Assembly (NCBI GenBank): GCA_965116495.1
Contig: OZ220696.1
Span: 3,616,001 to 3,680,000, forward strand
Length of the DNA: 64,000 nt
Direction of reading: 5' to 3'
From: Gammaproteobacteria bacterium
GTDB lineage: Bacteria > Pseudomonadota > Gammaproteobacteria > Eutrophobiales > Eutrophobiaceae
The position numbers were made by a program, and so were the translations under genes. Below are positions 17,086 to 53,606 of the stretch, in pieces. Position 1 is the first letter of the stretch, and every line of letters begins with the position of its first letter. The notes beneath the pieces were generated by a model that made no database searches, was not told where the DNA came from, and worked only from the letters and a program-made list of their open reading frames with translations.

Positions 17086-17120
17086 GACACCCATATAATG
17101 CTTGCGCTGCCCCACGAAAC

Positions 17121-27556: not shown

Positions 27557-27660
27557 ACTAGTTTTGTAGTACTCTAAAATTTGTGGGTGTCCCGAACTAC
27601 ATCCTGAACTACATTCGTCCTGAACCACATCCGTCATTCCTGCGGAAGCAGGAATCCAGT

Positions 27661-27809
27661 GGGTTCCGGCTCAAGCCGGAACGACGTGGTGGGCTCCTGC
27701 TCAAGCCGGAACGACGTGGTGGGCTCCTGCTCAAGCCGGAACGACGTGGTGGGCTCCTGCTCAAGCCGGAACGACGTGGTGGGCTCCTGCTCAAGCCGGA
27801 ACGACGTGG
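27661..27809. repeat. ~5 tandem 30-bp REP-derived units (GGGCTCCTGCTCAAGCCGGAACGACGTGGT)
   Basis: Directly visible tandem array with no spacers. Confidence 0.9.
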
Positions 27810-27856
27810 AGCGCTCTGGGTGCGTTCAGGTTCCAGTCGTAGTAGTCGTGGAGTGC

Positions 27857-30898: not shown

Positions 30899-30914
30899 TG
30901 TGAGTTTTATCACA
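30899..30914. promoter_or_regulatory. CRP-type box upstream of tRNA-like copy 1
   Basis: TGTGA-GTTTTA-TCACA; -10 TAAAAT at 30955-30960. Confidence 0.7.
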
Positions 30915-31007
30915 AAAGACGACAGATTTTCTGCAGCAGAAAACGGGAACCGGATAAAATCGACAGGTATAGAAAAACCCGTCCCCCGAGAAGGACGGGT
31001 CGTTTTT

Positions 31008-31109
31008 GCCCGGGTGGTGAAACTGGTAAACACAGGGGACCGTCACTCCCCCGGCCTCTGTAGTACAAGCTACATGCCTTACGGGTTCGAAGCCCGTCCC
31101 GGGCAGCCA
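31008..31109 (+). tRNA. tRNA-like element copy 1: Leu-type body, GUC anticodon, 29-nt variable arm (slightly degenerate)
   Basis: GCCCGGG/CCCGGGC acceptor stem, GTG..GG..CAC D arm, GGGGA-CCGTCAC-TCCCC anticodon arm, ACGGG-TTCGAAG-CCCGT T arm, ends AGCCA. Confidence 0.75.
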
Positions 31110-31120
31110 AAGGCCGTGTC

Positions 31121-31149
31121 AGTATCCTACAGGGATGGAGGGTTGTCAA
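31121..31149 (-). promoter_or_regulatory. sigma70 promoter antisense to tRNA-like copy 1
   Basis: TTGACA-17bp-GATACT on the minus strand. Confidence 0.7.
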
Positions 31150-31729
31150 ACTGTTTTGGGCAACGGGTTTGAACAGGGATGAGCAGGATTTACACTGCGG
31201 GGCACGGGACGGACTCCCGCTTACAACCCTGCCTCGGGGGCCAGGGCAGGCATGCGGGGGCATGCTTGAAGTCCGCTGGATTCCTCTAATTTATGGGTGT
31301 CCCAAATTACCCTTTGCATCCGCCACATGCGTTTGACTGTTGATTCAGGTTCACCTGATTCAGGACACTCAGCACAGAGACACCCATCCCCCTCTGTGCC
31401 CTCTGTGGCAAACAAATAATCGTACCCGATAATAGGTTCAGCAGCCCGGGCGATGTCTTCCGATTACGCCGGGCGCGGCGGTATTCTTTTGCCGAGCATT
31501 TCCAGGGCCGCTCATTGAATACCTTGCAGTACAGGCGCATTGGACAAGACCCGGCGCAGTGGCTGCACAAACGAAGAGCGTATTTACCCGATTCTCAGGC
31601 CCGGGGAACTACCATAGCAGTCACTCCTGCCCTGGAGGCAGAGTAGCTGGTCTGGCTCTACCGTGAGCAGTAATTAGTAAAACCAAAGAATTCGTTTACT
31701 TCTATCTGATATAACAGGAGAAAAAAGTT

Positions 31730-34700
31730 ATGGCAACTGTACAAGAGATGATGCCTGAAGCGGCCCACAGCATCGACACCTCCTACACGATATCTGCTGG
31801 CGATGTGTTCGCAGGCGGAATTACTCGTGGCGATGAAGACTGGATTAAGATCGAGATGAGTGAAGGCAAGCAATACACCATCACTGTCGGGGGCGGTGAG
31901 GGCGGAATGCTGAACGACTCCATCCTCAAGCTGATGGACGGCAAGGGCGGCGTGATCGAGATGAATGACGATACGGACCCCGCCAACGGCAAACTGGGTT
32001 CCGCAATTCACGTTCACCCCGGAGGTACCGGCAGCGGCACGCAGACGTACTATCATCAGTGTCAGCGGCTATAGCGACAATCCGGGCGCAAGTGAATGCC
32101 GGCACCTACACGCTCAGTGTCACAGCGATAGACGTGCTGCCGACCGGCGAGGGTGCGGACATCGAGGGTACGGGTGGCGCCGACAAGCTCACCGGCACGG
32201 CTGATGGCGAGTCCATCGCGGGTCTGGGCGGCAACGACACCATATACGGTGGTGGTGGCGACGACAGCCTGAGCGGTGGCGCAGGTGCTGACTTGCTCAT
32301 GGGCGGTGCGGGCGCCGACACGCTGAGAGGTGGTTCCTCCACGTATGATATTGATGGTGATGGTCCAGGGACAGCAACTGATGAGCACCGGGACACCATA
32401 TCCTACAAGTATTCACCGATGGGTGTCACCATCAACCTGAACGCCGGTACGGCCAGCGGTGGCGATGCCGAGGGTGATGACCTCGGCACGGACATTGAGA
32501 ATGTCATAGGTTCCATGCACGACGACGTGTTGACCGGCACGGATAACGTCAACGTGGGTAACAGTTTGTGGGGTTTGGGCGGAAACGACATTCTCTCCGG
32601 TAGAGAGGGCGAAGACATGCTCTACGGCGGCGCCGGCGATGACATGCTGGACGGCGGCGATGAGAACGATACCCTGGAAGGTGGCTATGGCGCGGATGAG
32701 TTAACCGGTGGTCTGGGCGCGGATACCGCCTCCTACGCCAGTTCCATGATGGGCGTAACGGTACGGCTGCATTCCGGCCAGGCCATGGGCGGCGACGCCG
32801 AAGGCGATACCTGGGGCGACACGGTGACCGTAGAGTACAGCATGCCGGCTGAGGACCCTGAAGATCCCCCTGTTCTAAAGGAGGAGACGGTACCTGATAT
32901 CGTCCACCTGACCGGTTCTCACATGGCCGACATACTGGCCGGCGACAGCAGGGACAACACCATTATGGGTATGGGCGGCGATGACAAGATCTACGGCGGC
33001 CCCGGTGGCGGTGATGACGTGCTGCACGGTGGTGGTGGCGCTGACATGCTGTTCGGCGGTATAGGCGCTGACGATCTCCATGGTGGTGACGGCGATGACA
33101 TGCTGCATGGCGGCCCTGGCGCTGACGATTTTTATGGCGGCGCCGGTAATGACATGATCTATGCGGATCTTGATGATGATGTTATTGACGGAGGAAGTAA
33201 TCCAGCAGGACATCCACCGGATATGGACACCGTCTCATTTGCAAGATTGGTGGATATGAACGTTGGAACGAGTGCAGATGACCCATTTACCCTTGGGGCT
33301 CGCGCAGAGGATAGAACAATACCCGCTGATGTTGATGCAGTAAACATCGAGCGTGTCATCGGTACGGACGAGGATGATTTTATAACCGGTGCAGATGAGT
33401 CAGCAGACGATGAAAATGACGCAGGGGAAGAAATCGAAGGCGGCGACGGTGGCGATACGCTTGTTGGCGGTGTTGGTGGCGGGGATACCGTATCCTATGA
33501 AAGTTCCGACCGGCGCGTGCGGGTGGATCTTGGCGATGGCACTGCCACCGGAGAGGCCGGATCGAGCAACTCCGGCGGTCACGCCACGGGCGACACCATC
33601 TCCGGTTTTGAAGACATCAAGGGTTCGGCCCATGGCGACGTTCTGCAAGGCCTGACTGGGACTGAAACGACGACTGGAACGGTTACTGCGACCGGCAGCA
33701 CGCTATGGGGTCTCGGCGGCGATGACTCCCTGACAGGCGGCTTTGATAATGACACCATTGAAGGCGGTGCCGGCGCTGATGAGGTAGATGGTGGCTTCAC
33801 CGCCAGTACTACCGAGGGAGTAGTGGGTACGAATACCCAAGCTAACACCTTGTCATACGCCGGTTCGGATGCGGGCGTAACGGTGAATCTGGTTACTTCA
33901 ACCGCATCAGGCGGTCATGCCGATGGTGATGAAATTGAAACCTACGAACTCACGCTCAATGAAGGCGGAGATAATGAGACGGAAATCGATGTTGCCACCT
34001 TCGTAAACGTGACCGGGTCAATGCATGATGACCACTTGACCGGTGACATGTTCAATAACCATCTCGCAGGCGGCGCCGGTGATGACAGACTGAGCGGTGG
34101 TGCCGGAGCGGATGTACTTGCTGGTGGCCCGGGGGCCGACAGGCTGGACGGTGGTGAGGATGCGAATGAAAGGAATAACATGGTACCTGATCCTGATGGG
34201 GACGAAGGTGCTATGATGGCTGCTTCAGAAGACTGGGCAGCTTATCGCGGCGCCATGGAAGGTGTTACGGTGAACCTGAACACAGGCAACGGTACGGGTG
34301 GTGACGCCATGGGTGACACGCTCAAGAATGTTGAGTTGGTATGGGGTTCCGCGCATGCTGATACGTTCGTAGCCAGTGAGGGTGCCGACATCATCCACGG
34401 TGATGGTGGCAGTGACACCGTATCCTACGAAGCATCGAAGCATGGGGTTACCGTCAATATGGCGGGTGATAACCCAGTGAACGTTGTTGATACGACCTTC
34501 ACTGCGGCTACTGATACTGATGGTACTCCGGGTAACGAGGATGACACACCGGACATATATAACCCTGCTACTGATGCAATCGTTACGGCATGGAGAGGTG
34601 GTAACTTTACCGAAAGGCCAACCGCTGTCGAGGACTTCGGTACCGATGCAACGAACAAAAGCTACGCCAAAGGCGACGTACTGGCCAGCATTGAGAACAT

Positions 34701-35295
34701 AACCGGTTCCCGTCAGGACGACAACATTACCGGTGATGCCGTTCCCAATACCCTCAAAGGCGGCGCCGGCAATGATGAGTTGAGCGGTGGTGGTCAGAAT
34801 GACAAGCTGTACGGCGAAGCCGGGAACGACGCCCTGAACGGCGATGCAGGTGATGACATGCTCATGGGTGGTGATGGCAATGATGACCTGGACGGTGGTG
34901 AAGGTGCTGACACCCTGAACGGTGGTGCCGGCGATGATGACCTGACCGGTAGCGGCGGCGCTGACACTTTTGTCTTCAGCCCGGGCGACGGAGATGACGT
35001 CATCGTTACGTTCGCTGAGGCAGACGACAAGATTGACCTGAGTGCGTTCGGTCTCGATGCGGATGAATTGAAAGCTGCCATCAGTGTACGTGCCGGTAAT
35101 ACTGTCATCAATCTGAATGATTACGGTGGCGGCACAATCACGCTTCAGGGTACCGATATAGACGTTCTTGAGAAGGGTACAAATGCTGAGGAAAATGAGA
35201 TCGAGACGCTGAGCGTCCGTGTGGATCTCAACAACGATGGTGACTTTGGAGATACAGTTGATGGTGTTGCTGAAGATGGTATCTTCATTATCTGA
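31730..35295 (+). pseudogene. RTX calcium-binding protein 2, frameshifted near 32010-32090 (real or sequencing error)
   Basis: ORFs 31730-32074 and 32059-35295 join into a paralog of 39528-43052; four small insertions relative to that gene. Confidence 0.8.
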
Positions 35296-35349
35296 TCAGC
35301 CGAGGTATTAGTAAACTAATCTTCCTGATTTCACGGAAGTAAACGATCG

Positions 35350-35400
35350 CAGGGGCGGTTTAGACGGGGAAACCTGTCTAAACTGGCCCCTGTTTTATTT
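35350..35400 (+). terminator. intrinsic terminator of RTX gene 2
   Basis: CAGGGGCGGTTTAGAC..GTCTAAACTGGCCCCTG plus TTTTATTT, with compensatory changes relative to the gene 1 copy. Confidence 0.75.
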
Positions 35401-35417
35401 GTACCCTACAGGACCGT

Positions 35418-35446
35418 TTGACAAACCGAAATCCAGTTACGATAAT
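35418..35446 (+). promoter_or_regulatory. sigma70 promoter antisense to tRNA-like copy 2
   Basis: TTGACA-17bp-GATAAT. Confidence 0.72.
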
Positions 35447-35461
35447 CATGACCGGTGCCTT

Positions 35462-35562
35462 TGGTGCCTGGGACGGGACTCGAACCCGTAAGGCTTGTAG
35501 GTTTCGCTGCAAATACCGGGGGAGTGACAATCCCCCGTGTTTACCGATTTCACCACCCGGGC
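35462..35562 (-). tRNA. tRNA-like element copy 2: Leu-type body, GUC anticodon, long variable arm
   Basis: GCCCGGGTGGTGAAATCGGTAAACACG-GGGGA-TTGTCAC-TCCCC-(29 nt)-ACGGG-TTCGAGT-CCCGT-CCCAGGC-ACCA; one C-A mismatch in the acceptor stem. Confidence 0.8.
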
Positions 35563-35570
35563 AAAAACGA

Positions 35571-35598
35571 CCCGTCCCTTTCGAGGGATGGGTTTTTT
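35571..35598 (+). terminator. terminator for the antisense transcript of copy 2
   Basis: CCCGTCCCT-TTCG-AGGGATGGG-TTTTTT. Confidence 0.75.
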
Positions 35599-35655
35599 AA
35601 CGCCCATTGATTGTATAAAACCCCCGTCTTGCGCAAAGCGAAACCTGATCAGATT

Positions 35656-35671
35656 TGTGAGAAAACTCACA
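35656..35671. promoter_or_regulatory. CRP-type box shared by divergent promoters
   Basis: TGTGA-GAAAAC-TCACA; TACAAT (minus, 35610-35615) and TATAAT (plus, 35712-35717) are equidistant from it. Confidence 0.72.
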
Positions 35672-35758
35672 GCCTCCCCAAAAAATATCTCACTCCGCCC
35701 CCTAGGCAGACTATAATCAACCCTGGCGTTTCATCAACAAAGAAGGATACGGGAAAAC

Positions 35759-36055
35759 ATGTCAATGGAATTAATTGCCTTGACAGGTATCGGCGTAACG
35801 GTAATCAGTACCGGCGTTGCACTGGCCGCCCTTATCCTGAATACCCAACGCAACCTGCGAGTGGAGATGCAGGCCCAGCGGGCGGAGACGAAGACAGAAT
35901 TCAAGGCTGTGCGGGAGGACATGCAGGCCCAGCGGGAAGCAATAATCAGCTTACTGGAACGCATGGCGCACCTGGAAGGATTGCTTGAGGGCCTGCGTGA
36001 GGCCATCACCGGCCGGCGCGTGGCTGAAGAAACGGGAAAATACAATACGCGCTGA
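35759..36055 (+). CDS. small N-anchored coiled-coil protein, family A (short)
   Basis: TM N-terminus, EFKAVRED unit, ERMAHLEGLLEG; paralogs at 37970 and 45256. Confidence 0.75.
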   Translation: MSMELIALTGIGVTVISTGVALAALILNTQRNLRVEMQAQRAETKTEFKAVREDMQAQREAIISLLERMAHLEGLLEGLREAITGRRVAEETGKYNTR

Positions 36056-36237
36056 ACAGCGGCGCAACCTCTCGAGTAATCCAGGACACCCTCAGCGCAT
36101 CTACCTAATTTATGGGTGTCCCAAATTACACCGGCCTCCTACGAGGCATCGTCGTTGGGCGTCACGGTGGACCAGAGCAGTGACACTCAGCACAGGACAG
36201 TGGTGACAGGCGGTACGGGCACTGAAGCTGATCCCTT

Positions 36238-36314
36238 TCTGATTTCACGGAAGTAAACGATCGCAGGGGCGGTTCAGACGGGGCAATCCGTTTGGACTGG
36301 CCCCTGTTTTATTT
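36238..36314 (+). terminator. orphan copy of the RTX 3' trailer and terminator
   Basis: CTGATTTCACGGAAGTAAACGATCGCAGGGGC..GCCCCTGTTTTATTT with no upstream RTX gene. Confidence 0.7.
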
Positions 36315-36343
36315 CTGCCTTCCTTTTTGTGATGGGTCGTGTA

Positions 36344-36604
36344 TCAGGAAAAGATCCTGTAGGCAATCGCAAGGATAAAGGGATAAAGGGAAAACACAGC
36401 GAACTTCAAGACCTTCAGTTCGGCGTTCATATCAGAGCGTAGCCCCTGTATGTCCGATTTCAATTCAGTACGCAGTTCCTGCAGGTCGGTTTTCGTTGCC
36501 AGGTTGTCGGTGACAGGCACGACGCCTGCTGCGGCCTTCGCTTTCTCTTCGGACGTTCCGGCTTCCACCAGGGCTTCGTAGATTTCGGCAATCATCATGC
36601 TCAT
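36344..36604 (-). CDS. small coiled-coil protein with C-terminal anchor, family D (DUF1640-like)
   Basis: EIYEALVEAGTSEEKAKAAA, LATKTDL, hydrophobic tail. Confidence 0.75.
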   Translation of the reverse strand: MSMMIAEIYEALVEAGTSEEKAKAAAGVVPVTDNLATKTDLQELRTELKSDIQGLRSDMNAELKVLKFAVFSLYPFILAIAYRIFS

Positions 36605-36687
36605 GCTCTCTCTCCATGTATGTTTATCAGATGTCTATTATATTATCAACGCGGGCAAACGTATTCAAACAGGAGTTCGACGTTTCA

Positions 36688-36703
36688 TGTGAGTTTTGTC
36701 ACA
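36688..36703. promoter_or_regulatory. CRP-type box
   Basis: TGTGA-GTTTTG-TCACA, 19 bp upstream of TTGACG. Confidence 0.68.
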
Positions 36704-36798
36704 AATATCGAAAAAAAAACCGTTGACGGTCTCCATATGTATATTTTACAGTGAGTGTCACTTGAAATTAAGGGAACGGGCGAATCGGGACATACAAC

Positions 36799-37191
36799 AT
36801 GTCTATGGAAATAATAACCATCGTCAGCCTCGGTTTAACGGTAATCACAGTCGGCATCATGCTGGCCGGTCTTATTCTGACTGGTCAGCGCGCCCTTCGG
36901 GCAGAGATGAATGGCCAGCGGGGAGACATCAAGTCCCTGCGGGAAGAAATGCGGTCGGAGTTCAAGGCCGTGCGGGAAGAGTTGCATGCTTACCGGGAGG
37001 AGACCCAGAGAGAATTCAAGGCCGTGCGCGAGGAGATAGGCGGTTTGCGCGAGGAGATAGGCGGTTTGCGCGAACGCATGGCGCATGTAGAAGGACTGCT
37101 TGAGGGCCTGCTGCGTGAAGCCTTCATCGGCAGGCGCGCAGCGCCGGCGGAAGCCGTGGCTGAGGACCCCGGCCCATACGATAAACGCTGA
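36799..37191 (+). CDS. small N-anchored coiled-coil protein, family B
   Basis: TM N-terminus, REEIGGL heptads, ERMAHVEGLLEG..PYDKR. Confidence 0.75.
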   Translation: MSMEIITIVSLGLTVITVGIMLAGLILTGQRALRAEMNGQRGDIKSLREEMRSEFKAVREELHAYREETQREFKAVREEIGGLREEIGGLRERMAHVEGLLEGLLREAFIGRRAAPAEAVAEDPGPYDKR

Positions 37192-37316
37192 CCTGTCCCT
37201 TCCTGCTCATCCCTGTTCCAACCCGTTGCCCAAAACCGATTGACAACGAACCCCGGCCAAGCCATACTGCCCGAACGATTAACTGGAAGTTGTAACAGTA
37301 AAGGAGGTACACCCCA

Positions 37317-37604
37317 ATGATAAATCAGGAAGCCCAACTGAACGGCAGCACGGAAGCCTTTGCCCGCGCCTTTTCCAACCTGGTAAAGGACGCCACCTCA
37401 CACTTGGCCACCAAGGAAGATTTGGACAACGTGGTTGCCAACATGGCCACTAAGGAAGATTTGGACAACGCGGTTGCCAACATGGCTACCAAGGAGGATA
37501 TCAATGAACTGTCAGACCGGATAGACACGACCGACAAGCACATGCAGACCCAGTTTGCCCGACAGGAAGAGAAAATCGCCGACATAGCCCGGAAACTGGA
37601 TTGA
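37317..37604 (+). CDS. small coiled-coil protein, family C (ATKEDL repeats)
   Basis: SD AGGAGG, promoter TTGACA-17bp-CATACT at 37240-37268, three ATKED units. Confidence 0.75.
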   Translation: MINQEAQLNGSTEAFARAFSNLVKDATSHLATKEDLDNVVANMATKEDLDNAVANMATKEDINELSDRIDTTDKHMQTQFARQEEKIADIARKLD

Positions 37605-37969
37605 GCCCGAGGGGCTGATACACCACCCGGGCAAGAACGACCCGTCCCTCTCGGGGGCGGGATTTTTTATGGTAATTCAGGACACTCGCAAATTATCCTG
37701 CCTGCAAGAGGCAGTTTCCCACATACTTGACATGAATGAATGACGGACTGGGTTCCTGCTTTCGTAGGAACGACGGGTCGTGTCAAGAATCTTTCGTACT
37801 TTCTGTCCGACCCTGGAAGGCTACAGGTACGGCTATCTAATTTATGGGTGCCTGAATTACTCTACCCCGTTATAGAGGTTTGCGGACAACGTGATTTATG
37901 GGTGCCCTGAATTACTCTACCCCGTCACGCTGAGGGTGTCCTGGATTACTCGAGAGGTTGCGCCGGTGT

Positions 37970-38407
37970 TCAGCGCGTATTGTATTTTCCTGTTTCTTCA
38001 GCCACGCGCCGGCCGGTGATGGCCTCACGCAGGCCGTCAAGCAATCCTTCCAGGTGCGCCATGCGTTCCAGTAAGCTGATGATTGCTTCCCGCTGGGCCC
38101 GCATGTCCTCTCGCACAGCCTTGAATTCTGTCTTCGTCTCCTCTCGCACAGCCTCGAATTCTGTCTTCGCCTCCTCCCGCTGGGCCTGCATGTCCTCCCG
38201 TACAGCCTCGAATTCTGTCTTCACCTCCGCCCGCTGGGCCCGCATGTCCTCCCGCACAGCCTTGAATTCTGTCTTCGTCTCCGCCCGCTGGGCCCGCATC
38301 TCCACCCGCAGGTTGCGTTGGGTATTCAGGATAAGGGCGGCCAGTGCAACGCCGGTACTGATTACCGTTACGCCGATACCTGTCAAGGTAATTAATTCCA
38401 TTGACAT
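37970..38407 (-). CDS. small N-anchored coiled-coil protein, family A (medium)
   Basis: Same termini as 35759 with four EF(K/E)AVRE units. Confidence 0.75.
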   Translation of the reverse strand: MSMELITLTGIGVTVISTGVALAALILNTQRNLRVEMRAQRAETKTEFKAVREDMRAQRAEVKTEFEAVREDMQAQREEAKTEFEAVREETKTEFKAVREDMRAQREAIISLLERMAHLEGLLDGLREAITGRRVAEETGKYNTR

Positions 38408-38523
38408 GATGTATTTTCCTCAGTCTCCTTGTGTAGTCAGCGCCGGCCTGTTATCCACCGGTTCTGAGTTATCCTTAATATAAAGATACGGTTTGAACCT
38501 GTCCAAACATCTTTTCCCGAGTT

Positions 38524-38539
38524 TGTGGGTTTTATCACA
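38524..38539. promoter_or_regulatory. CRP-type box (one mismatch)
   Basis: TGTGG-GTTTTA-TCACA upstream of a TGGACA-17bp-TATATT promoter on the minus strand. Confidence 0.6.
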
Positions 38540-38667
38540 TGCCACCGCAGGTTAACAATTGAACGGCGTAAACTTGGACACTACCTCCAATTTGTGGGTG
38601 TCCCAAATTACGCCGTGCATCGTGCGACCTGACCCCGGCTTCCCGGTGTTGCAGATTAGGCGCCAGG

Positions 38668-38985
38668 TCAGCGTTTATCGTATGGGCCGGGACCCTCAGC
38701 CACGGCCTCCGCCGGCGCTGCGCGCCTGCCGATGAAGGCTTCACGCAGCAGGCCCTCAAGCAGTCCTTCCACATGCGCCATGCGCTCCCGCAAACCGCCT
38801 ATCTCCTCCCGCACGGCCTTGAATTCTCTCTGGGCCTCCTCCCGGTGAGCATGCAGCTCTCCCCGCAGGGACTGTATGTCTCCCCGCTGGCCATTCATCT
38901 CTGCCCGAAGGGCGCGCTGACCAGTCAGAATAAGACCGGCCAGCGCCACGGCGGTGCTGATGATGGCAATTAATTCCATTGACAT
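38668..38985 (-). CDS. small N-anchored coiled-coil protein, family B (with a family A-type leader and start)
   Basis: MSMELIA start and upstream region match the 35759 gene; the body matches the 44674 gene. Confidence 0.75.
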   Translation of the reverse strand: MSMELIAIISTAVALAGLILTGQRALRAEMNGQRGDIQSLRGELHAHREEAQREFKAVREEIGGLRERMAHVEGLLEGLLREAFIGRRAAPAEAVAEGPGPYDKR

Positions 38986-39072
38986 GTTTTCCCGTATCCT
39001 TCTTTGTTGATGAAACGCCAGAGTCGATTATAGCCTGCCTGGGGGCCGGAGTGAGATATTTTTTGGGGAGGC

Positions 39073-39088
39073 TGTGAGTTTTCTCACA
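39073..39088. promoter_or_regulatory. CRP-type box
   Basis: TGTGA-GTTTTC-TCACA; inverted copy of the 35656 context. Confidence 0.68.
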
Positions 39089-39527
39089 AATCTGATCAGA
39101 TTTCGCTTTGCGGCAGACGGGGGTTTTATACAATCAATGGGCACTAAAAAACCTGGTAATTCAGGACACCCACAAATTATCCTGCCTGCAAGAGGCAGTT
39201 TCCCACATACTTGACATGAATGAATGACGGACTGGGTTCCTGCTTTCGCAGGAACGACGGGTCGTGTCAAGAATCTTTCGCACTTTCTGTCCGACCCTGG
39301 AAAGCTACAGGTACGGCCATCTAATTTATGGGTGTCCTCCCGTCATTCTGGCGAACGCCAGAATCCATAGGTAACTCGGTAAATGACTGGGTTCCGGGTC
39401 AAGCCCGGAACGACTGGGGGGGTACAAATAAAACAGGGGCCAGTCTAAACGGGTTGCCCCGTCTAAACCGCCCCTGTGATCGTTTACTTCCGTGAAATCA
39501 GGAAGATTTTGGTTTTGTTGCCTATGG

Positions 39528-42500
39528 TTATACGATAAAGATACCGTCTGTGGCATCGGTTCCGTCACCTATGCCATCTTCAGCACCATTCGTATCATTA
39601 AGGACAAGTGCTATACCGATTGTAGCTGTCAGTACGGCTATAGTCTGATCCTGAATGGTAATTCTGCCGCCACCGTAGTCTTCCAGGTTAACGACAACAT
39701 TGCCGGCACGCTCGCTGAGGAGGCCTTCCATATCGCCCGGCCTGATCCCGAAAGCCGTGAGGTCGATGTAATCGCCATCGCCGGTACGATTCGTGGCGTC
39801 GCCAGCAGCAGTCGGCGCTAATTCAATGTCGATAATGACGTCGCTTCCGTTGCCCGGGGTGAAGACAAAAGTGTCTATGCCTGTACCACCGGTCAGGTCA
39901 TCATCACCAGCGCCACCATTTATGGTGTCATTACCGGCGCCGCCATTTATGGTGTCATTGCCGGCGTCACCGTACATCATGTCATTGCCTGCGTCAGTAG
40001 CTGCAGCCTCTCCACGATCACTGTTATCGTTGTCGTCATTCAAGTCCGCTTCAGCTCTTTCGCCTATTACATCATTGCCGGCGCCGCCGTGCAGCTTGTC
40101 ATTTCCATCGCCGCCACTAATCCTGTCAGGGCCGCCGCCGCCTTTGATGACATTGGGAGTGGCATCGCCGACAATAACGTCGTCCTGACGGGAACCGGTC
40201 ACGTTCTCAATGCTGGCCAGTACGTCACCTTCGGCGTAGCTCTTGGTCGTTGTCAAAGTATCTGGTTCCTGGACAGCTACCGGCCTCGGAGTATTTGTAC
40301 TACCTCCTCTCCATTCCTCAACAATTGCATCAGTAGCACTGATAAACGCATTATCATCGTCATTGCCCTCAATATCATCGGGGCCGTTGGCATCGAACGT
40401 AGTAGCATCGTTACCAACCAATTCTACAGTCACGCCATGCTTCGATGCTTCGTAGGATACGGTGTCACTGCCGCCATCACCGTGGATGATGTCGGCACCC
40501 TCACTGGCTACGAACGTATCGTCGTGCATAGAGCCCCATATCAATTCGATATTCTTGAGCGTGTCACCCATGGCGTCTCCACCCGTGCCCATGCCGGTGT
40601 TCAGGTTCACCATCACACCGTCCATAGCGCCGCGGTAGGCTGCCCAGTCTTCGTGCTCTACATCAGGGGTATCAGCATTTTCATCATGGTTCCATTTGCT
40701 GCTTCCACCATCCAGCCTGTCAGCACCCGGGCCACCAGCGAGTATGTCCGCTCCGGCGCCACTGCGCAGGTTGTCGTCACCAGCGCCGCCTTCGAGATGG
40801 TTATCGAACCTGTCACCGGTCAAGTGGTCATTATGCATCGACCCGGTCACGTTTACGAAGGTGGAAACATCTATATCTTCGTCATCGTCATCAGTAGTGG
40901 TGCCCTTGTCATCAAGAAACTCGTAGGTCTCAATTTCATCCCCCTGGGCATGACCGCCTGATGCGGTGGAAGTAGCCAGGTTCACTGTGACGCCCGCATC
41001 CGAACTGGCATAGGACAAGGTGTTTACTTGGCTACTTTCATCAACATCGTCTGTATCTTGAGTTACGCCGCCATCCAGCTCATCAGCGCCGGCGCCGCCT
41101 TCCAGGGTGTCATTGCCGTCTTCACCCGTCAGAGTGTCATCGCCGTCGAGACCCCAGAGTATGCTACCTTGGATACCGCCAGTATTAGGATCGGTATCAT
41201 TCGACCGGGCTGTCAGGTTGTCGTCAAAGGCCGAACCCCTGACGTTTTCAAAGCCGGCAATGTCGTCACCTGATGCATGGCCGCCGGAGGCGGTTGCGGT
41301 AGTTGCGTCGAGAGTATCCTCGCCAGCAGCCAAGTCAACCCGCACACCCCTGTCCGAATTCTCATAGGACACAGTATCACCTATGCCAGTACCACCTATA
41401 AGATCGTCCGCCCCATCGCCACCTTCGATGATTTCAGGGGCAGCGTTTGTGCCTGTCAACGTATCATCCTCGTCGGTGCCGATGAGAGTTTCAATAGAAA
41501 CAAAACGAGGAAGACCCAGATTGATATCGACTCCTTCCTTGTTCCTGGCGTAGGAAAGGGTGTCGTTCTCACCCGGCGCATTATCAGTCATCTCGTTAAA
41601 ATCCGTCGTCATCCCATCGTCCGCCATTGCAGCACCGGAAATGGTTCCGCTATCACCTGTGTTCGCCATGTCGTATATCATGTCACTGCCGGCGCCGCCG
41701 TAATAATCGTCATCGCCCGAACCGCCACTCAGCATGTCATTGCCGCCACCGCCATGGAGATCGTCATTGCCTATACCGCCGAACAGCATGTCAGCGCCGC
41801 CACCACCGTGCAGCACGTCATCACCACCGCCGGGGCCGCCGTAGATCTCGTCATCGCCGCCCATACCCATAATGGTGTTGTCCCTGCTGTCGCCGGCCAG
41901 TATGTCGGCCATGTGAGAACCGGTCAGGTGGACGATATCAGGTACCGTCTCCTCCTTTAGAACAGGGGGATCTTCAGGGTCCTCAGCCGGCATGCTGTAC
42001 TCTACGGTCACCGTGTCGCCCCAGGTATCGCCTTCGGCGTCGCCGCCCATGGCCTGGCCGGAATGCAGCCGTACCGTTACGCCCATCATGGAACTGGCGT
42101 AGGAGGCGGTATCCGCGCCCAGACCACCGGTTAACTCATCCGCGCCATAGCCACCTTCCAGGGTATCGTTCTCATCGCCGCCGTCCAGCATGTCATCGCC
42201 GGCGCCGCCGTAGAGCATGTCTTCGCCCTCTCTACCGGAGAGAACGTCGTTTCCGCCCAAACCCCACAATTTGTTACCCACGTTGACGTCATCCGTGCCG
42301 GTAATCGTGTCGTCGTGCATGGAACCTATGACATTCTCGATATCCGTACCGAGGTCATCACCCTCGGCGTCGCCGCCCCTGGCTGTGCCGTCATTCAGGT
42401 TGATGGTCACACCCATCGGGGAATACCTGTAGGTTATGGTGTCCTCACCGAGGCCACCCCTGAGCGTATCGGCGCCCGCACCGCCCATGAGCAGGTCGTT

Positions 42501-43052
42501 ACCGGGGCCACCGCTCAGGCTGTCGTCGCCGCCACCACCGTATATAGTATCATTGCCGCCCAGACCCGCGATGGATTCGCCATCAGCCGTGCCGGTGAGC
42601 TTGTCGGCGCCACCCGTACCCTCGATGTCCGCACCCTCGCCGGTCGGCAGCACGTCTATCGCTGTGACACTGAGCGTGTAGGTGCCGGCATTCACTGCGC
42701 CCGGATTGTCGCTATAGCCGCTGACACTGATGAAGTACGTCTGCGTGCCGCTGCCGGTCTCCGGGGTGAACGTGATTGCGGAACCCAGTTTGCCTTTGGC
42801 GGGGTCCGTATCGTCATTCATCTCGATCACGCCGCCCTTGCCGTCCATCAGCTTGAGGATGGAGTCGTTCAGCGTTCCGCCCTCACCGCCCCCGACAGTG
42901 ATGGTGTATTCCTTGCCCTCACTCATCTCGATCTTAATCCAGTCTTCATCGCCACGAGTAATTTCGCCTGCGAACGTATCGCCGGCAGATATCGTGTAGG
43001 AGGTGTCGATGCTGTGGGCCGCTTCAGGCATCATCTCTTGTACAGTTGCCAT
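39528..43052 (-). CDS. RTX calcium-binding protein 3
   Basis: GGxGxDxLx repeats; paralog of genes 1 and 2; trailer and terminator at 39426-39510. Confidence 0.9.
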   Translation of the reverse strand: MATVQEMMPEAAHSIDTSYTISAGDTFAGEITRGDEDWIKIEMSEGKEYTITVGGGEGGTLNDSILKLMDGKGGVIEMNDDTDPAKGKLGSAITFTPETGSGTQTYFISVSGYSDNPGAVNAGTYTLSVTAIDVLPTGEGADIEGTGGADKLTGTADGESIAGLGGNDTIYGGGGDDSLSGGPGNDLLMGGAGADTLRGGLGEDTITYRYSPMGVTINLNDGTARGGDAEGDDLGTDIENVIGSMHDDTITGTDDVNVGNKLWGLGGNDVLSGREGEDMLYGGAGDDMLDGGDENDTLEGGYGADELTGGLGADTASYASSMMGVTVRLHSGQAMGGDAEGDTWGDTVTVEYSMPAEDPEDPPVLKEETVPDIVHLTGSHMADILAGDSRDNTIMGMGGDDEIYGGPGGGDDVLHGGGGADMLFGGIGNDDLHGGGGNDMLSGGSGDDDYYGGAGSDMIYDMANTGDSGTISGAAMADDGMTTDFNEMTDNAPGENDTLSYARNKEGVDINLGLPRFVSIETLIGTDEDDTLTGTNAAPEIIEGGDGADDLIGGTGIGDTVSYENSDRGVRVDLAAGEDTLDATTATASGGHASGDDIAGFENVRGSAFDDNLTARSNDTDPNTGGIQGSILWGLDGDDTLTGEDGNDTLEGGAGADELDGGVTQDTDDVDESSQVNTLSYASSDAGVTVNLATSTASGGHAQGDEIETYEFLDDKGTTTDDDDEDIDVSTFVNVTGSMHNDHLTGDRFDNHLEGGAGDDNLRSGAGADILAGGPGADRLDGGSSKWNHDENADTPDVEHEDWAAYRGAMDGVMVNLNTGMGTGGDAMGDTLKNIELIWGSMHDDTFVASEGADIIHGDGGSDTVSYEASKHGVTVELVGNDATTFDANGPDDIEGNDDDNAFISATDAIVEEWRGGSTNTPRPVAVQEPDTLTTTKSYAEGDVLASIENVTGSRQDDVIVGDATPNVIKGGGGPDRISGGDGNDKLHGGAGNDVIGERAEADLNDDNDNSDRGEAAATDAGNDMMYGDAGNDTINGGAGNDTINGGAGDDDLTGGTGIDTFVFTPGNGSDVIIDIELAPTAAGDATNRTGDGDYIDLTAFGIRPGDMEGLLSERAGNVVVNLEDYGGGRITIQDQTIAVLTATIGIALVLNDTNGAEDGIGDGTDATDGIFIV

Positions 43053-43223
43053 AACTTTTTTCTCCTGTTATATCAGATAGAAGTAAACGAATTCTTTGGT
43101 TTTACTAATTACCGAGTATTAGAAGCAGCGTGATTGTCAGTAATGCCCCCTTATAATTGGAATACTGCAGGGTTTTCTGCAGCGATAATGTAAAGAACTA
43201 AAATAGCTTTGAGGATATTAATC

Positions 43224-44192
43224 ATGATGAAACCGATCGAAAGGAAGAGCAGTTTTTATGATGACGTGCTTTTTTCGTCACTGTCGAAGAACACCCGCAT
43301 CGCTTATGACAAGGGCTGGTCTTGTTTTCAAGACTACTGTGTGCAGAAAAGCGTAAACCCGATAGCTGCGACGCCTGATCATGTAGCTGATTTCTTTATT
43401 GACATGGGGTCACGCGCCAATACAGCCAATGGGAAAAAGTTATCAATTGGCACGCTTTACCTGTATAGAAGTGCGATAAACAGGCGGTATGTGGAAGCAC
43501 ACAAATCTTCACCCACAAAACACCTGAAGGTGAATGCCGTCCTGAAAGGATTGGCGCGTATGCGCGGCACTGCTCCGCGCCAGGTGCTGGCTTTGCGGGA
43601 GCACCATATCCTGTGTATGTTGGAGCAGTGTGGCGACAGTCTTATCGGTCTGCGCAACGCGGCGATAATTTCGCTTGGTTTCTCGGCTGCCTTGCGCCGG
43701 TCTGAAATATGTGCGCTCCGGATAGACGATATTCAAATCATTTCACCAGGCCATGGAGACGATAACCGTAAGATGCTTGTGCATATCCGAAAATCGAAAA
43801 CGGACCAGACAGGGAAAGGTCAACGCATCGCGGTGCCGGATGGTCAAAGGATAAAACCGATAAAACGCCTGGAAGATTGGCTTCAGTCCTCAGGTATCAC
43901 GCGGGGATTCGTGTTTCAAACGATGGCGCGCGGCGGTAGTTTGCGTGGACGTCCTTTGCATTCTGTGGATATTCCCCGTCTGTTGAAACATTACGCCGAA
44001 ACAATTGGCTTGGACCCTGACGAGGTCTCCGGCCACTCACTGCGAGCAGGCTTTGTGACCAGTGCGGCCGTGCACCATGCGCGGCTCGATAAAATCATGG
44101 AAATTACCCGCCATACAAACCCGGAAATGGTGATGAGATACATTCGGGACGTGGGGTTATTCGATAATCACGCCGGAAAGGATTTTTTGTAG
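43224..44192 (+). CDS. Cre-like tyrosine recombinase/integrase
   Basis: LRRSEI (R), KSKTDQ (K), GHSLRAG (HxxR), RHT (H), RYIR (Y); catalytic set appears intact. Confidence 0.92.
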   Translation: MMKPIERKSSFYDDVLFSSLSKNTRIAYDKGWSCFQDYCVQKSVNPIAATPDHVADFFIDMGSRANTANGKKLSIGTLYLYRSAINRRYVEAHKSSPTKHLKVNAVLKGLARMRGTAPRQVLALREHHILCMLEQCGDSLIGLRNAAIISLGFSAALRRSEICALRIDDIQIISPGHGDDNRKMLVHIRKSKTDQTGKGQRIAVPDGQRIKPIKRLEDWLQSSGITRGFVFQTMARGGSLRGRPLHSVDIPRLLKHYAETIGLDPDEVSGHSLRAGFVTSAAVHHARLDKIMEITRHTNPEMVMRYIRDVGLFDNHAGKDFL

Positions 44193-44329
44193 CGGCAATT
44201 TAGGACACCCATGAATTCCTGGGTTCCGGCTTGCGCCGGAACGACGGGGAGGCAGCAATTTAGGACACCCATAAATTGGCGGTAATTCTGCAACCAGGAT
44301 AACGTAAATTGATGAGTACCCAAAACTGT

Positions 44330-44358
44330 TTGACAACCCCCCATCCCTGTAGGATACT
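44330..44358 (+). promoter_or_regulatory. sigma70 promoter antisense to tRNA-like copy 3
   Basis: TTGACA-17bp-GATACT. Confidence 0.72.
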
Positions 44359-44369
44359 GACATCACCTT

Positions 44370-44470
44370 TGGTGCCCGGGACGGGACTCGAACCCGTAAG
44401 GCATGTAGTTTTGGCTACAGAGGCCGGGGGAGTGGCAATCCCCTGTGTTTACCGATTTCACCACCCGGGC
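44370..44470 (-). tRNA. tRNA-like element copy 3: Leu-type body, GCC anticodon, long variable arm, all stems perfect
   Basis: GCCCGGG-TG-GTGAAATCGGTAAACAC-A-GGGGA-TTGCCAC-TCCCC-CGGCCTCTGTAGCCAAAACTACATGCCTT-ACGGG-TTCGAGT-CCCGT-CCCGGGC-ACCA. Confidence 0.85.
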
Positions 44471-44478
44471 AAAAACGA

Positions 44479-44506
44479 CCCGTCCCTTTCGGGGGACGGG
44501 TTTTTT
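44479..44506 (+). terminator. terminator for the antisense transcript of copy 3
   Basis: CCCGTCCC-TTTCGG-GGGACGGG-TTTTTT. Confidence 0.75.
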
Positions 44507-44563
44507 AATGCCCGTTGATTGTATAAAACCCCCGTCTTGCGCAGCGGAGAATATGCGTCGATT

Positions 44564-44579
44564 TGTGACAAAACTCACA
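44564..44579. promoter_or_regulatory. CRP-type box shared by divergent promoters
   Basis: ATTTGTGA-CAAAAC-TCACAAAT; TACAAT (minus, 44518-44523) and TTGACG-17bp-TATAGT (plus). Confidence 0.72.
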
Positions 44580-44673: not shown

Positions 44674-45012
44674 ATGTCTATGGAAATAATAACCATCGTC
44701 AGCCTCGGTTTAACGGTAATCACTGTCGGCATCATGCTGGCCGGTCTTATTCTGACTGGTCAGCGCGCCCTTCGGGCAGAGATGAATGGCCAGCGGGGAG
44801 ACATACAGTCCCTGCGGGGAGAGCTGCATGCTCACCGGGAGGAGGCCCAGAGAGAATTCAAGGCCGTGCGGGAGGAGATAGGCGGTTTGCGGGAACGCAT
44901 GGCGCATGTGGAAGGACTGCTTGAGGGCCTGCTGCGTGAAGCCTTCATCGGCAGGCGCGCAGCGCCGGCGGAAGCCGTGGCTGAGGGTCCCGGCCCATAC
45001 GATAAACGCTGA
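44674..45012 (+). CDS. small N-anchored coiled-coil protein, family B
   Basis: Paralog of 36799 with fewer repeats. Confidence 0.75.
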   Translation: MSMEIITIVSLGLTVITVGIMLAGLILTGQRALRAEMNGQRGDIQSLRGELHAHREEAQREFKAVREEIGGLRERMAHVEGLLEGLLREAFIGRRAAPAEAVAEGPGPYDKR

Positions 45013-45255: not shown

Positions 45256-45801
45256 ATGCCAATGGAATTAATTGCCTTGACAGGTATCGGCGTAACGGTA
45301 ATCAGTACCGGCGTTGCACTGGCCGCCCTTATCCTGAATACCCAACGCAACCTGCGGGTGGAGATGCAGGCCCAGCGGGCGGAGGCAAAGACAGAATTCA
45401 AGGCTGTGCGGGAGGAGACGAACGCAGAATTCAAGGCTGTGCGGGAGGACATGCGGGCCCATCGGGAGGAGGTGAAGACAGAATTCAAGGCTATGCGGGA
45501 GGACATACAGGCCCAGCGGGCGGAGGTGAAGACAGAATTCAAGGCTATGCGAGAGGACATGCAGGCCCAGCAGGAGGAGACGAAGACAGAATTCAAGGCT
45601 GTGCGGGAGGACATGCAGGCCCATCGGGCGGAGGTGAAGACAGAATTCAAGGCTATGCGGGAGGAGATGCGGGCCCAGCGGGAGGCAATAATCAGCTTAC
45701 TGGAACGCATGGCGCACCTGGAAGGATTGCTTGAGGGCCTGCGTGAGGCCATCACCGGCCGGCGCGTGGCTGAAGAAACGGGAAAATACAATACGCGCTG
45801 A
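45256..45801 (+). CDS. small N-anchored coiled-coil protein, family A (long)
   Basis: Six EFKA(V/M)RE units. Confidence 0.75.
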   Translation: MPMELIALTGIGVTVISTGVALAALILNTQRNLRVEMQAQRAEAKTEFKAVREETNAEFKAVREDMRAHREEVKTEFKAMREDIQAQRAEVKTEFKAMREDMQAQQEETKTEFKAVREDMQAHRAEVKTEFKAMREEMRAQREAIISLLERMAHLEGLLEGLREAITGRRVAEETGKYNTR

Positions 45802-45976: not shown

Positions 45977-46282
45977 TCAGCGTTTATCGTATGGGCCGGG
46001 ACCCTCAGCCACGGCTTCCGCCGGCGCTGCGCGCCTGCCGATGAAGGCTTCACGCAGCAGGCCCTCAAGCAGTCCTTCCACATGCGCCATGCGTTCCCGC
46101 AAACCGCCTATCTCCTCGCGCAAATCGCCTATCTCCTCGCGCACGCTGCCTATCTCCCCGCGCACGCTGCCTATCTCCCCACGCACGCTGCCTATCTCCC
46201 TGCGCAGGCTGTTCTGGCCGTTCAGGATGAGGCCGGCCAGCGCTGTGCTGGCGCTTATGATTGCAATGATCTCCATGGACAT
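45977..46282 (-). CDS. small N-anchored coiled-coil protein, family B variant
   Basis: SD AAGGAG, MSMEIIAII start, EIGSVRG heptads, the same C-terminus as family B. Confidence 0.75.
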   Translation of the reverse strand: MSMEIIAIISASTALAGLILNGQNSLRREIGSVRGEIGSVRGEIGSVREEIGDLREEIGGLRERMAHVEGLLEGLLREAFIGRRAAPAEAVAEGPGPYDKR

Positions 46283-46378
46283 TTTATTTCTCCTTAATCT
46301 CCGGATGCCGTTCAGTAATTCAACTGCTTCCAAGTATGATACATGTATGGGAACTGTCAACGGGTTTTGCCGGGTTTT

Positions 46379-46394
46379 TGTGAGTTTTCTCACA
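46379..46394. promoter_or_regulatory. CRP-type box
   Basis: TGTGA-GTTTTC-TCACA, 18 bp from TTGACA on the minus strand. Confidence 0.68.
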
Positions 46395-52612: not shown

Positions 52613-52728
52613 AACCCCGGCAAAAATCCGTTGACACTCCCCTTGCATACAACAATACTGACCGGTGTCGCTGGGGGCAGAATTGATTTCGCCCCTGGAA
52701 ATTCGTATCAAAAAAAGGAGTATTGCCC

Positions 52729-53217: not shown

Positions 53218-53606
53218 TCCCGGGGGGCTGACACACCACCCGGGCAAGAACGACCCGTCCCTCTCAGGACACCCATAAAGCTATCTCTCTGTGATCTCTG
53301 TGGCAAACAAAATCACTGACGCCAATCCGGATGGTAGCTTCGTCCCCTGATCAGCCCGGAGCAATCCAGGACATCCATGAATTACCGGGTTGCCTATGGA
53401 TTCTGGCGTTCGCCAGAATGACGTAATTCAGGACATCCTTAAATTATATTGCCTGCAAAAGGCGGTTACCCACAGTGGGTCCCCACATACACCTACACAC
53501 ATACACCCGCACGCATACATCCGGGGCGGTTCAACTTGACATACCGGGCGTTTCAATTAGAATATTTCGTCAACCTGACACGAAGAAATACCCAAGGAGA
53601 GAGAAT

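Follow-up and report, generated by a model that had tools for sequence, protein, structure and literature searches.

A family of leucine-type tRNA-like genes with aspartate and glycine anticodons and a predicted cis-antisense partner in a gammaproteobacterial genus

Natural tRNAs whose identity contradicts their anticodon are rare, and the roles of the described examples, i.e., nev-tRNAs, allo-tRNAs, and tRNA-ProX, are unknown. The nev-tRNAs have the anticodons CCC (Gly) and UAU (Ile), and tRNA-ProX comes with a dedicated partner synthetase, ProRSx. Here we describe tRNA-like genes of a comparable kind, three of which lie in a window of 64,000 nt (the whole stretch of DNA analysed; contig OZ220696.1 of assembly GCA_965116495.1, positions 3,616,001-3,680,000, forward strand) in the 4.34-Mb, one-contig genome of a gammaproteobacterium, together with the genus-wide family to which they belong. 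The family is a new bacterial variant of the anticodon/identity-mismatched tRNAs, with a predicted cis-antisense partner; no published bacterial tRNA with a leucine body and a GUC or GCC anticodon, nor a tRNA gene with a built-in antisense gene, was found in the literature searched.

The nematode nev-tRNAs, as described by Hamashima et al. (2012, PMC3333845), are class II molecules derived from tRNA-Leu with non-leucine anticodons including Gly, as is our family; those with a leucine body and a Gly anticodon are charged only with leucine and decode GGG as leucine in vitro. They are eukaryotic with Gly and Ile anticodons, whereas the family is bacterial with GCC and GUC, so that the leucine-derived class II body under another anticodon is shared and the nematode host is not. 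A 29-nt variable arm, a cis-antisense promoter and terminator, a CRP-type operator, and linkage to RTX genes further distinguish the family, whose charging is only predicted. The allo-tRNAs (Mukai et al. 2017, PMC5389517) share with it the bacterial origin, the long variable arm, and the mismatch between anticodon and body; GUC is among their common anticodons, and some of them are linked to mobile elements or toxin-antitoxin loci. The same paper describes for them an 8/4 or 9/3 arrangement of acceptor and T stem (a 12-bp acceptor domain), serine or alanine identity, and anticodons for 35 codons, whereas our copies have seven acceptor and five T-stem pairs, i.e., the canonical 7/5 architecture, a leucine-type body with A73, and essentially two anticodons. 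The tRNA-ProX genes of Streptomyces and Kitasatospora (PMC11415595) are likewise encoded on bacterial chromosomes and join a single identity to anticodons that belong to other amino acids, but the genome studied here has only single LeuRS, AspRS-type and GlyQ genes and no dedicated extra synthetase of the tRNA-ProX type, and body, anticodons, and gene context differ as well. In the marsupial mitochondrial tRNA-Asp/Gly, one body carries GCC or GUC with position 35 as the only difference, as in our family; there, a single gene gives both forms through RNA editing, one charged with Gly and the other with Asp (PMC9976931), whereas here the switch is genomic, among paralogues, and on a leucine-type body.

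An initial annotation of the window had reported three tRNA-Leu-bodied elements with the loops CCGTCAC, TTGTCAC, and TTGCCAC, all of which were verified at these places:

31008..31109, + strand, copy 1, tRNA-like gene; anticodon GUC, loop CCGUCAC, 3' end AGCCA; family model 119.2 bits
35462..35562, - strand, copy 2, tRNA-like gene; anticodon GUC, loop UUGUCAC, 3' end ACCA; family model 117.7 bits
44370..44470, - strand, copy 3, tRNA-like gene; anticodon GCC, loop UUGCCAC, 3' end ACCA; family model 125.6 bits

The elements are about 101 nt long and form a cloverleaf whose acceptor, D, and anticodon stems have 7, 3, and 5 bp, respectively. The D loop has 11 nt and contains G18G19, the anticodon loop has 7 nt, and the variable region of 29 nt is made up of 3 bp, an internal loop, another 5 bp, and a loop of 6 nt; the T loop is UUCGA and the discriminator base A73. 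The stems, the GG-containing D loop, the long variable arm, and A73 of the earlier description stand, except that in copy 2 a C4-A69 mismatch breaks the 7-bp acceptor stem, and one further C-A mismatch lies in its variable arm; the ACCA ends it gave for copies 2 and 3 are present. With a covariance model built from the three copies, the own genome contains these three only (118-126 bits), and the next match is the real tRNA-Leu(UAA) with 74.5 bits, followed by the other tRNA-Leu genes with 52-56 bits and tRNA-Asp with 37 bits, which upholds the claimed likeness of the body to tRNA-Leu(UAA). The elements share the acceptor stem GCCCGGG/CCCGGGC with the real tRNA-Leu(UAA) gene of this genome, and the D arm and anticodon stem are nearly identical to those of Halieaceae tRNA-Leu(UAA), with A73 and the core tertiary nucleotides shared. 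Differences from the canonical tRNA-Leu(UAA) are the three anticodon bases, an extra 5-bp variable-arm hairpin, and invisibility to ARAGORN. This program, expected earlier to give a leucine isotype in conflict with the anticodon, called none of the three copies in the window. The Rfam tRNA model (RF00005, gathering score 29) scored copy 3 with 55.8 bits and copy 2 with 51.7 bits, and copy 1 was absent from the RF00005 cmscan list, though it aligns over its full length to the family model (119 bits). The family is thus a case of genes that standard tRNA finders miss. The canonical tRNA set of the genome is complete, with five tRNA-Leu genes, a single tRNA-Asp(GUC), and a single tRNA-Gly(GCC).

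The family model was used to search 61 genomes with a cut of at least 99 bits. Of the 23 genomes of the same genus, 13 have copies at this level; the 14 genomes from other genera of the family and the 24 from other families of the class have none. A carrying genome has 1 to 10 copies, which in one case (G003) are ten same-strand units within 10 kb with short cassettes between them and in two others (G004 and G009) include head-to-tail arrays with a period of 190 nt. A pattern scan with one genome per species added a few contigs of metagenome-assembled genomes (MAGs), some with doubtful taxonomic labels, and a scan of metagenomes gave 7 matches. A viral origin of the units was considered and rejected, as the scan of viral contigs gave 0 matches. 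The family alignment (A6) holds 41 copies, 38 of them distinct, all from close relatives. The genome search with a covariance model that had been proposed as a check on anticodon diversity and covariation thus yielded a genus-wide family with two anticodons and compensatory changes. A distant relative (L069 3981-4082, - strand, 87 bits) comes from a contig of 63.8 kb with the label Cyclobacteriaceae; its variable arm is similarly long and its anticodon loop reads UUAGGAU, which is either an AGG anticodon or a tRNA-Leu(UAG) loop minus one base, and it was left out of the family for its AGG anticodon and for having neither antisense promoter nor hairpin. The 5' end of the copy in another genome (G005, L053 8303-8397) is cut off by an insert, and the same insert sequence stands upstream of the own genome's real tRNA-Leu(CAG) gene (G000 C1:756222-756520); because G004 and G009 have an intact unit at that place, where the insert is found here, the unit beside our tRNA-Leu(CAG) gene may have been lost.

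Among the 38 distinct copies the anticodon is GCC in 19, GUC in 17, and AUC and GCU in one each, the last two sharing one 3-kb contig, and no leucine anticodon (NAG or YAA) belongs to the family. G34 and C36 are each present in 37 copies, and position 35 is always U or C. Most genomes with at least two copies have both anticodons, and an identical variable-arm loop was found with GUC in one genome and with GCC in another. The inner 4 to 5 bases of this loop differ between almost all copies, even in G003, despite near-identical flanks.

The fold is clearly under selection. In the family alignment, 99.4% of 1064 pair cells are paired, two-sided changes occur at pairs 5:68 and 6:67 of the acceptor stem and 31:39 of the anticodon stem (25 cells), the observed covariation score was reached by none of 500 shuffles, and slid registers fall to 32-53% paired. 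Since the copies are relatives, these counts of compensatory events overstate the number of independent changes. RNAalifold returned the same cloverleaf from the alignment, which was itself fitted to the model structure and thus favours it. On the tRNA strand, G·U is found in 19 cells at five pairs, three of which are common to 3, 4, and 10 sequences that come from several genomes, and the A·C cells, equal to G·U on the opposite strand, number 6, every one a singleton. Positions 16, 17, 20, 57, 59, 60, 32, and 38 and the variable-arm loop vary, as the same places do in real tRNAs, and no variation was seen at U8, A14, A15, G18, G19, U54, U55, C56, and A58 in the 38 distinct copies, all of which have the 7/5 cloverleaf of the RF00005 type with the conserved tertiary nucleotides. 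The compensatory changes, the strand-specific G·U, and the tRNA-like variation argue that the tRNA-sense strand is the selected one; judged from the alignment, the tRNA-sense RNA is the molecule whose shape is maintained. Minimum free energy (MFE) folding of single sequences gave Z-scores from -0.65 to -2.24 for both strands, with sense MFE structures other than the cloverleaf and an antisense MFE structure that is the mirror cloverleaf in two of three copies.

The covariation and the conserved family contradict the scenario of decayed integration-site remnants without compensatory change, by which the earlier proposal was to be refuted. The related possibility that the units are att- or attC-like recombination sites or remnants of mobile elements, derived from a tRNA-Leu target, spread by a tyrosine recombinase, and devoid of RNA function, is highly improbable. 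It would agree with the tyrosine recombinase gene 178 nt from copy 3 (43209-44192), the REP-like inserts of the island, an RTX gene bracketed by inverted copies, and the same-strand array of ten units with short cassettes in G003, where the units lie with a Gp49/HTH toxin-antitoxin pair. However, BLASTP found no relative of this recombinase at the other loci examined, the units are complete tRNAs rather than 3' fragments, they have no matches in viral contigs, and compensatory changes, strand-specific G·U, and a restricted anticodon are unexpected of DNA sites. A conserved adjoining tyrosine recombinase, as attC or att sites would have, is lacking, and a partnership of the units with the recombinase was rejected, as the gene stands beside copy 3 only.

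Each tRNA-like gene is part of a larger unit, whose promoters and terminators were called by motif on both strands:

30899, 35656, 36688, 39073, 44564, 46379, 52597, operator sites in the window with the TGTGAGTTTTNTCACA pattern
30899..30914, + strand, copy 1 operator TGTGAGTTTTATCACA, CRP/FNR-type palindrome
30955..30960, + strand, copy 1 predicted sense -10 box TAAAAT, starting 41 nt past the operator
30977..31000, copy 1 GC-rich hairpin, flanked by an A-run on one side and a T-rich run on the other; sense leader, terminator-like for the antisense
31121..31149, - strand, copy 1 predicted antisense promoter TTGACA-17-GATACT
35418..35446, + strand, copy 2 predicted antisense promoter TTGACA-17-GATAAT, 11/12 consensus positions
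35570..35593, copy 2 hairpin
35610..35615, - strand, copy 2 predicted sense -10 box TACAAT, starting 41 nt past the operator
35656..35671, - strand, copy 2 operator, common to the divergent small coiled-coil gene 35759-36055 (+)
44330..44358, + strand, copy 3 predicted antisense promoter TTGACA-17-GATACT
44478..44501, copy 3 hairpin with a U-tract directly after it on the + (antisense) strand
44518..44523, - strand, copy 3 predicted sense -10 box TACAAT
44564..44579, - strand, copy 3 operator, common to the divergent coiled-coil gene 44674-45012 (+)

The palindrome TGTGA-N6-TCACA lies about 90-110 nt upstream of the tRNA-like gene. Exact sites number 11 in the genome, where about 3 are expected, and 7 of them are in the window; the extended operator TGTGAGTTTTNTCACA is present in 20 of the 23 genus genomes, and the reversed control pattern in none. 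Of the 25 units whose operator is exact, 24 have a -10-like hexamer that starts +41/42 (18 units) or +22 (6 units) from the operator edge, which places the centre of the palindrome near -61 or -42. These are the class I and class II geometries of CRP/FNR-type activators. The predicted sense transcript starts at a conserved GGGCA and runs through the A-run, the GC hairpin, which itself shows compensatory variants, and the T-rich stretch to G1 of the tRNA. The -10 boxes stand at equal distance on both sides of TGTGAGTTTTNTCACA, and the palindrome also fronts divergent small membrane-anchored coiled-coil genes and, at 52597, a 1866-aa RTX gene; the contexts of three other operator-type sites in the genome were uninformative. 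From these arrangements, TGTGAGTTTTNTCACA looks like the operator of a bidirectional CRP/FNR-type regulon over RTX, coiled-coil, and tRNA-like genes.

In 37 of the 38 distinct units, TTGACA stands on the antisense strand downstream of the tRNA, and an unconserved spacer of exactly 17 nt separates it from the hexamer [G/A/C]A[T/C]A[A/C]T, mostly GATAAT or GATACT. In 36 of the 38, 5-8 uninterrupted A precede the hairpin and form a U-tract in the antisense. [quoted passage not shown] A search for sequencing runs covering the region returned four runs of one study, none of them listed as RNA. In type I toxin-antitoxin repeats, e.g., ibs/Sib and ldr/Rdl of E. coli, short units, often multi-copy and in islands, have a strong antisense promoter, and our units resemble them in that the RNA expected from a strong predicted promoter would be complementary over its full length to a product that is itself regulated and potentially harmful. 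They differ from them in having no conserved ORF for a small toxin, with the antisense promoter and terminator in 37 of 38 units, so that the antisense would oppose a tRNA instead of a peptide. A toxin ORF in the unit was dismissed for its non-conserved start: the small ORF running through it is not conserved, and where some copies have an ATG, others have ACG or ATT, or a stop after the ATG.

Three remnants of the unit also lie in the window:

39073..39153, + strand, operator and sense promoter box without hairpin or tRNA; homology stops at a REP-like insert
37619..37668, + strand, complement of the first ~10 tRNA nt, hairpin, and T-run, in terminator position after the gene 37317-37604 (+)
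53236..53268, + strand, like 37619-37668, after the gene 52723-53217 (+); hairpin cut by a REP-like insert

The two hairpin-bearing remnants are predicted to act as terminators of the upstream genes. Such terminator-like remnants are what one would expect if the antisense RNA of about 150 nt were the functional product, with the tRNA shape as an inherited relic and the unit as a small RNA gene and terminator of RTX and coiled-coil genes. This reading, to which we give a slim chance, would also explain why TTGACA-17-GATAAT is the most invariant feature of the unit (37/38), why the uninterrupted U-tract is on the antisense side only, why every unit of a tandem array keeps the antisense promoter and only the first has the sense promoter, and why at ten places the unit is just downstream of an RTX gene coded on the antisense strand. 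However, G·U persists on the tRNA strand only, and in one clade (L020, L050, L051, L052, L071) the antisense cloverleaf would contain two or three C·A each; positions vary or stay constant as they do in a tRNA, and the spacing from operator to -10 box points toward the tRNA. The RTX gene of copy 2 has its own long hairpin with a T-run ahead of the antisense promoter, which was read by eye and not listed by the terminator scan. The antisense reading also leaves the restricted anticodon unexplained, and the 7-nt complement of the anticodon loop is not enriched in RTX mRNAs beyond codon-order shuffles (counts 2, 3, 9 versus means of 3.2, 2.6, 6.8). The anticodon loop as a 7-nt seed on RTX mRNAs was discarded for this lack of excess. 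We likewise rejected an antisense RNA directed at the real tRNA-Leu(UAA), because the acceptor stems do not co-vary: where units have changed to GCCCAGG or GCCCAAG, GCCCGGG is retained in the real genes.

The neighbourhood of the units links their anticodons to the genes around them. The window contains four RTX genes, a type I secretion ABC transporter gene, seven small coiled-coil paralogues, and one tyrosine recombinase. Two of the RTX genes flank the copies:

32059..35295, + strand, RTX gene, 1078 aa, GGY+GAY codons 31.4%; copy 1 upstream in the same direction, copy 2 downstream and convergent
39528..43052, - strand, RTX gene, 1174 aa, GGY+GAY codons 31.2%; downstream of copy 3 on the same strand

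The GCC and GUC anticodons read the GGY and GAY codons, respectively, of the adjacent RTX genes. These codons make up 29.5-31.4% of the four RTX genes; their share is 12.2% in the long ORFs of the whole genome and 5-12% in the non-RTX genes nearby. An RTX gene stands beside the unit at 8 of 14 places with 17-64 kb of context (17 kb at 12, 20 kb at two, and the 64-kb window) and at 15 of all 31 loci, several of which are duplicates or very short; very many RTX repeats are found in all 23 genus genomes, with at most 150 candidates scored in most of them, so that repeat counts do not compare between genomes. In G004 and G009, the units sit among housekeeping genes, at one site between yebC-ruvCAB and nadA and at a second with rnr on one side and, on the other, a real tRNA-Leu(CAG) gene under a separate promoter. 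The genes beside copy 1 (313, 139, and 463 aa) match no Pfam or NCBIfam family and are not kept next to other units.

As to the amino acid, E. coli LeuRS is described as needing A73, A15-U48, G18G19, A20a, and contacts of the D and T loops, with the anticodon and the sequence and fold of the variable arm irrelevant to leucine identity (PMC9976931). A73 is present in 36 of the 38 distinct copies, one copy having G (with anticodon GCC) and one C, and A15-U48, G18G19, A20a, G18:U55, G19-C56, U54:A58, and the large variable region are all present and invariant by sequence. The determinants of bacterial AspRS are given as G73, G10, G34, U35, C36, and C38, those in the anticodon being strongest, and those of bacterial GlyRS as U73, G1-C72, C2-G71, G3-C70, C35, and C36 (PMC9976931). 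G73 is found in no GUC copy, though all 17 have G10 and GUC and 15 have C38; U73 is never found, pair 3:70 is C-G, and the GCC copies have four of the six glycine determinants, G1-C72, C2-G71, C35, and C36. The discriminator base does not follow the anticodon. The mismatch between anticodon and body claimed at the outset is therefore confirmed as far as leucine determinants can be read from sequence: these are kept, and the body lacks G73 and U73. The own genome has one LeuRS-type match, one GlyQ, and three class IIb matches (596, 532, and 462 aa), none of them near the units, and no extra LeuRS, AspRS, or GlyRS was found in it; a private synthetase for the units was ruled out by this single LeuRS, AspRS-type set, and GlyQ. 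Because the full leucine identity set is present and the G73 and U73 rules are not followed, leucine is, by the published identity rules, the most likely charge of the units.

It is nevertheless conceivable, though unlikely, that the units are extra decoders for Asp and Gly, the GUC form being charged by AspRS and the GCC form by GlyRS, and co-induced with the RTX genes so as to cover the very high need of these genes for GAY and GGY decoding. Their two anticodons correspond precisely to the codon types that account for about 31% of RTX codons, the operator is common to units, RTX genes, and coiled-coil genes, and the genome has only one canonical tRNA gene for each of the two anticodons. The Asp and Gly determinants listed above for the GUC and GCC copies, the dominance of the anticodon in recognition by bacterial AspRS, and the marsupial mitochondrial body that is Asp with GUC and Gly with GCC (all PMC9976931) suit this explanation, as does the placement of the G004 and G009 units in housekeeping neighbourhoods like ordinary tRNA genes. 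Against it, A73 is kept regardless of the anticodon, with G73 only once and in a GCC copy, pair 3:70 is C-G in place of the G-C of the glycine set, and with all leucine determinants intact LeuRS should compete. Moreover, a correctly charged and harmless tRNA leaves the consensus antisense promoter of 37 of 38 units without an obvious reason.

The restricted anticodon could also belong to an uncharged tRNA mimic that acts through its anticodon arm, as a decoy for AspRS/GlyRS or for an anticodon nuclease or modifier, or as a deacylated ligand of the ribosomal A site that signals the RTX translation load at GAY/GGY codons, e.g., through RelA. We consider this quite unlikely. The near-invariance of G34 and C36 with a constant pyrimidine at position 35, the resemblance of the anticodon loops to those of the genome's tRNA-Asp (CUGUCAC) and tRNA-Gly (UUGCCAA), the oversized and conserved variable arm, and the regulated sense and antisense promoters are compatible with a mimic, as is the heterogeneous 3' end, with A, AG, ACA, AAA, or ATA ahead of CCA. 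However, the full tRNA core and acceptor stem are kept with compensatory changes, beyond the needs of an anticodon-arm decoy, A73 and the leucine identity set are intact, and no tRNA-targeting toxin or nuclease turned up, no search having been aimed at such genes.

Our preferred reading, held tentatively and at somewhat less than even chances, is that the units encode a conditionally expressed leucine-type tRNA predicted to read Asp and Gly codons and opposed by its own antisense RNA. A CRP/FNR-type factor at TGTGA-N6-TCACA would activate sense transcription, the same factor serving the RTX and coiled-coil genes of the island, and the transcript would be processed to a mature tRNA and leucylated by the single LeuRS. 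The charged tRNA would enter the ribosome at Asp (GAY) and Gly (GGY) codons, and the antisense RNA would repress it through pairing or transcriptional interference. The net effect would be conditional misincorporation of leucine at, or competition for, the two codon families that dominate the RTX genes. We favour this leucine-type tRNA because it explains the conserved tRNA core, the restricted anticodon, and the dedicated silencer together.

Several observations weigh against it. CCA is encoded straight after A73 in only 15 of the 38 distinct copies; some real tRNA-Leu(UAA) genes of the genus, in G015 (L098) and G003 (L102), also have no encoded CCA, so that the maturation of CCA-less tRNA genes in this genus must proceed by cleavage and CCA addition. 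C38, an Asp determinant, is found in 15 of 17 GUC versus 11 of 19 GCC copies, a weak hint from sequence that identity follows the anticodon. Copy 1 has C33 in place of U33. The hairpin and T-rich run between the predicted sense start and the tRNA could end transcription early, the terminator scan found the hairpin terminator-like on both strands in copies 1 and 3, and in the 190-nt arrays of G004 and G009 the units after the first lack a separate sense promoter. Finally, leucine at about 31% of RTX codons, under the operator of the RTX genes, looks harmful for an RTX-rich organism.

A further reading is an all-RNA addiction or switch module, in which the toxin would be a leucine-charged tRNA that misreads Asp and Gly codons, those at which errors would hurt this RTX-laden proteome most, the antitoxin would be the constitutive cis-antisense RNA, and a CRP-type activator would tip the balance. 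We think this decidedly unlikely; if true, it would be the first toxin-antitoxin-like system with a tRNA as the toxic part and a natural switch for proteome-wide mistranslation.

The island has further features of its own. The small coiled-coil proteins (98-181 aa) begin with a membrane helix, and their coiled coil consists of 18-aa (54-nt) repeats, the number of which varies; they match no Pfam or NCBIfam family, and the family adjoins units in G003, G007, and G018 as well. The members in the window are:

35759-36055, + strand, N-terminal helix and coiled coil
36799-37191, + strand, N-terminal helix and coiled coil
37970-38407, - strand, N-terminal helix and coiled coil
38668-38985, - strand, N-terminal helix and coiled coil
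44674-45012, + strand, N-terminal helix and coiled coil
45256-45801, + strand, N-terminal helix and coiled coil
45977-46393, - strand, N-terminal helix and coiled coil

Two further small coiled-coil families are represented by 36344-36604 (-) and by 37317-37604 (+) and 52723-53217 (+). The array of ten units in G003 has an RTX gene on one side and the gene of a type I secretion ABC transporter on the other, and one of its cassettes (L040, 12053-12668) encodes a Gp49-like (HigB-type) toxin with an HTH_3 antitoxin. The RTX paralogues at 31670-33161 and 41674-43112, and at 21777-22546, share inverted patches (771, 338, and 243 nt) that are 95-98% identical, and the rest of the proteins is 64-71% identical; because such near-identical inverted patches lie in otherwise diverged proteins, the comparison suggests gene conversion between the RTX copies. 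The tyrosine recombinase (43209-44192, +), an insertion that separates copy 3 from its RTX gene, has a Phage_integrase domain, weak Xer-like NCBIfam matches far below the cut-off, and no counterpart at the other loci.

A REP/MITE-like palindrome, about 67 nt long and based on AATTTGGGACACCCATAAATT, is found in about 9 copies at 5430-17494 and 61330-61430 and also as inserts at 31275, 39160, and 53265; two of the unit remnants are interrupted by it. The sole ARAGORN call in the window, a 93-nt tRNA-Gln(ctg) at 15684-15776 (-), lies within three tandem 36-nt repeats GTTCCGGCCTGCGCCGGAACGACG and is almost certainly a false positive; repeats of 30-36 nt similar to GTTCCGGCCTGCGCCGGAACGACG are found at 27629-27846 and 55771-55832. 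Four direct repeats of about 720-840 nt each lie at 17523-20319, at least the last two of which carry a 193-aa ORF (19049-19630 and 19890-20471, both -) with a borderline Hjc-type resolvase match (21.7 bits versus a cut-off of 21.1).

Among the tRNAs that contradict their anticodon, this family is unusually informative for its clear purifying selection and because, in a genus full of RTX genes, its anticodons are limited to the pair for the signature Gly and Asp codons of RTX repeats. A conditional and tightly controlled use is implied, because each copy has a predicted built-in antisense gene and a recognisable operator. The family offers a testable bacterial system, whether for regulated mistranslation, for a dual-identity scaffold switched by one anticodon base, or for a tRNA-shaped regulator.

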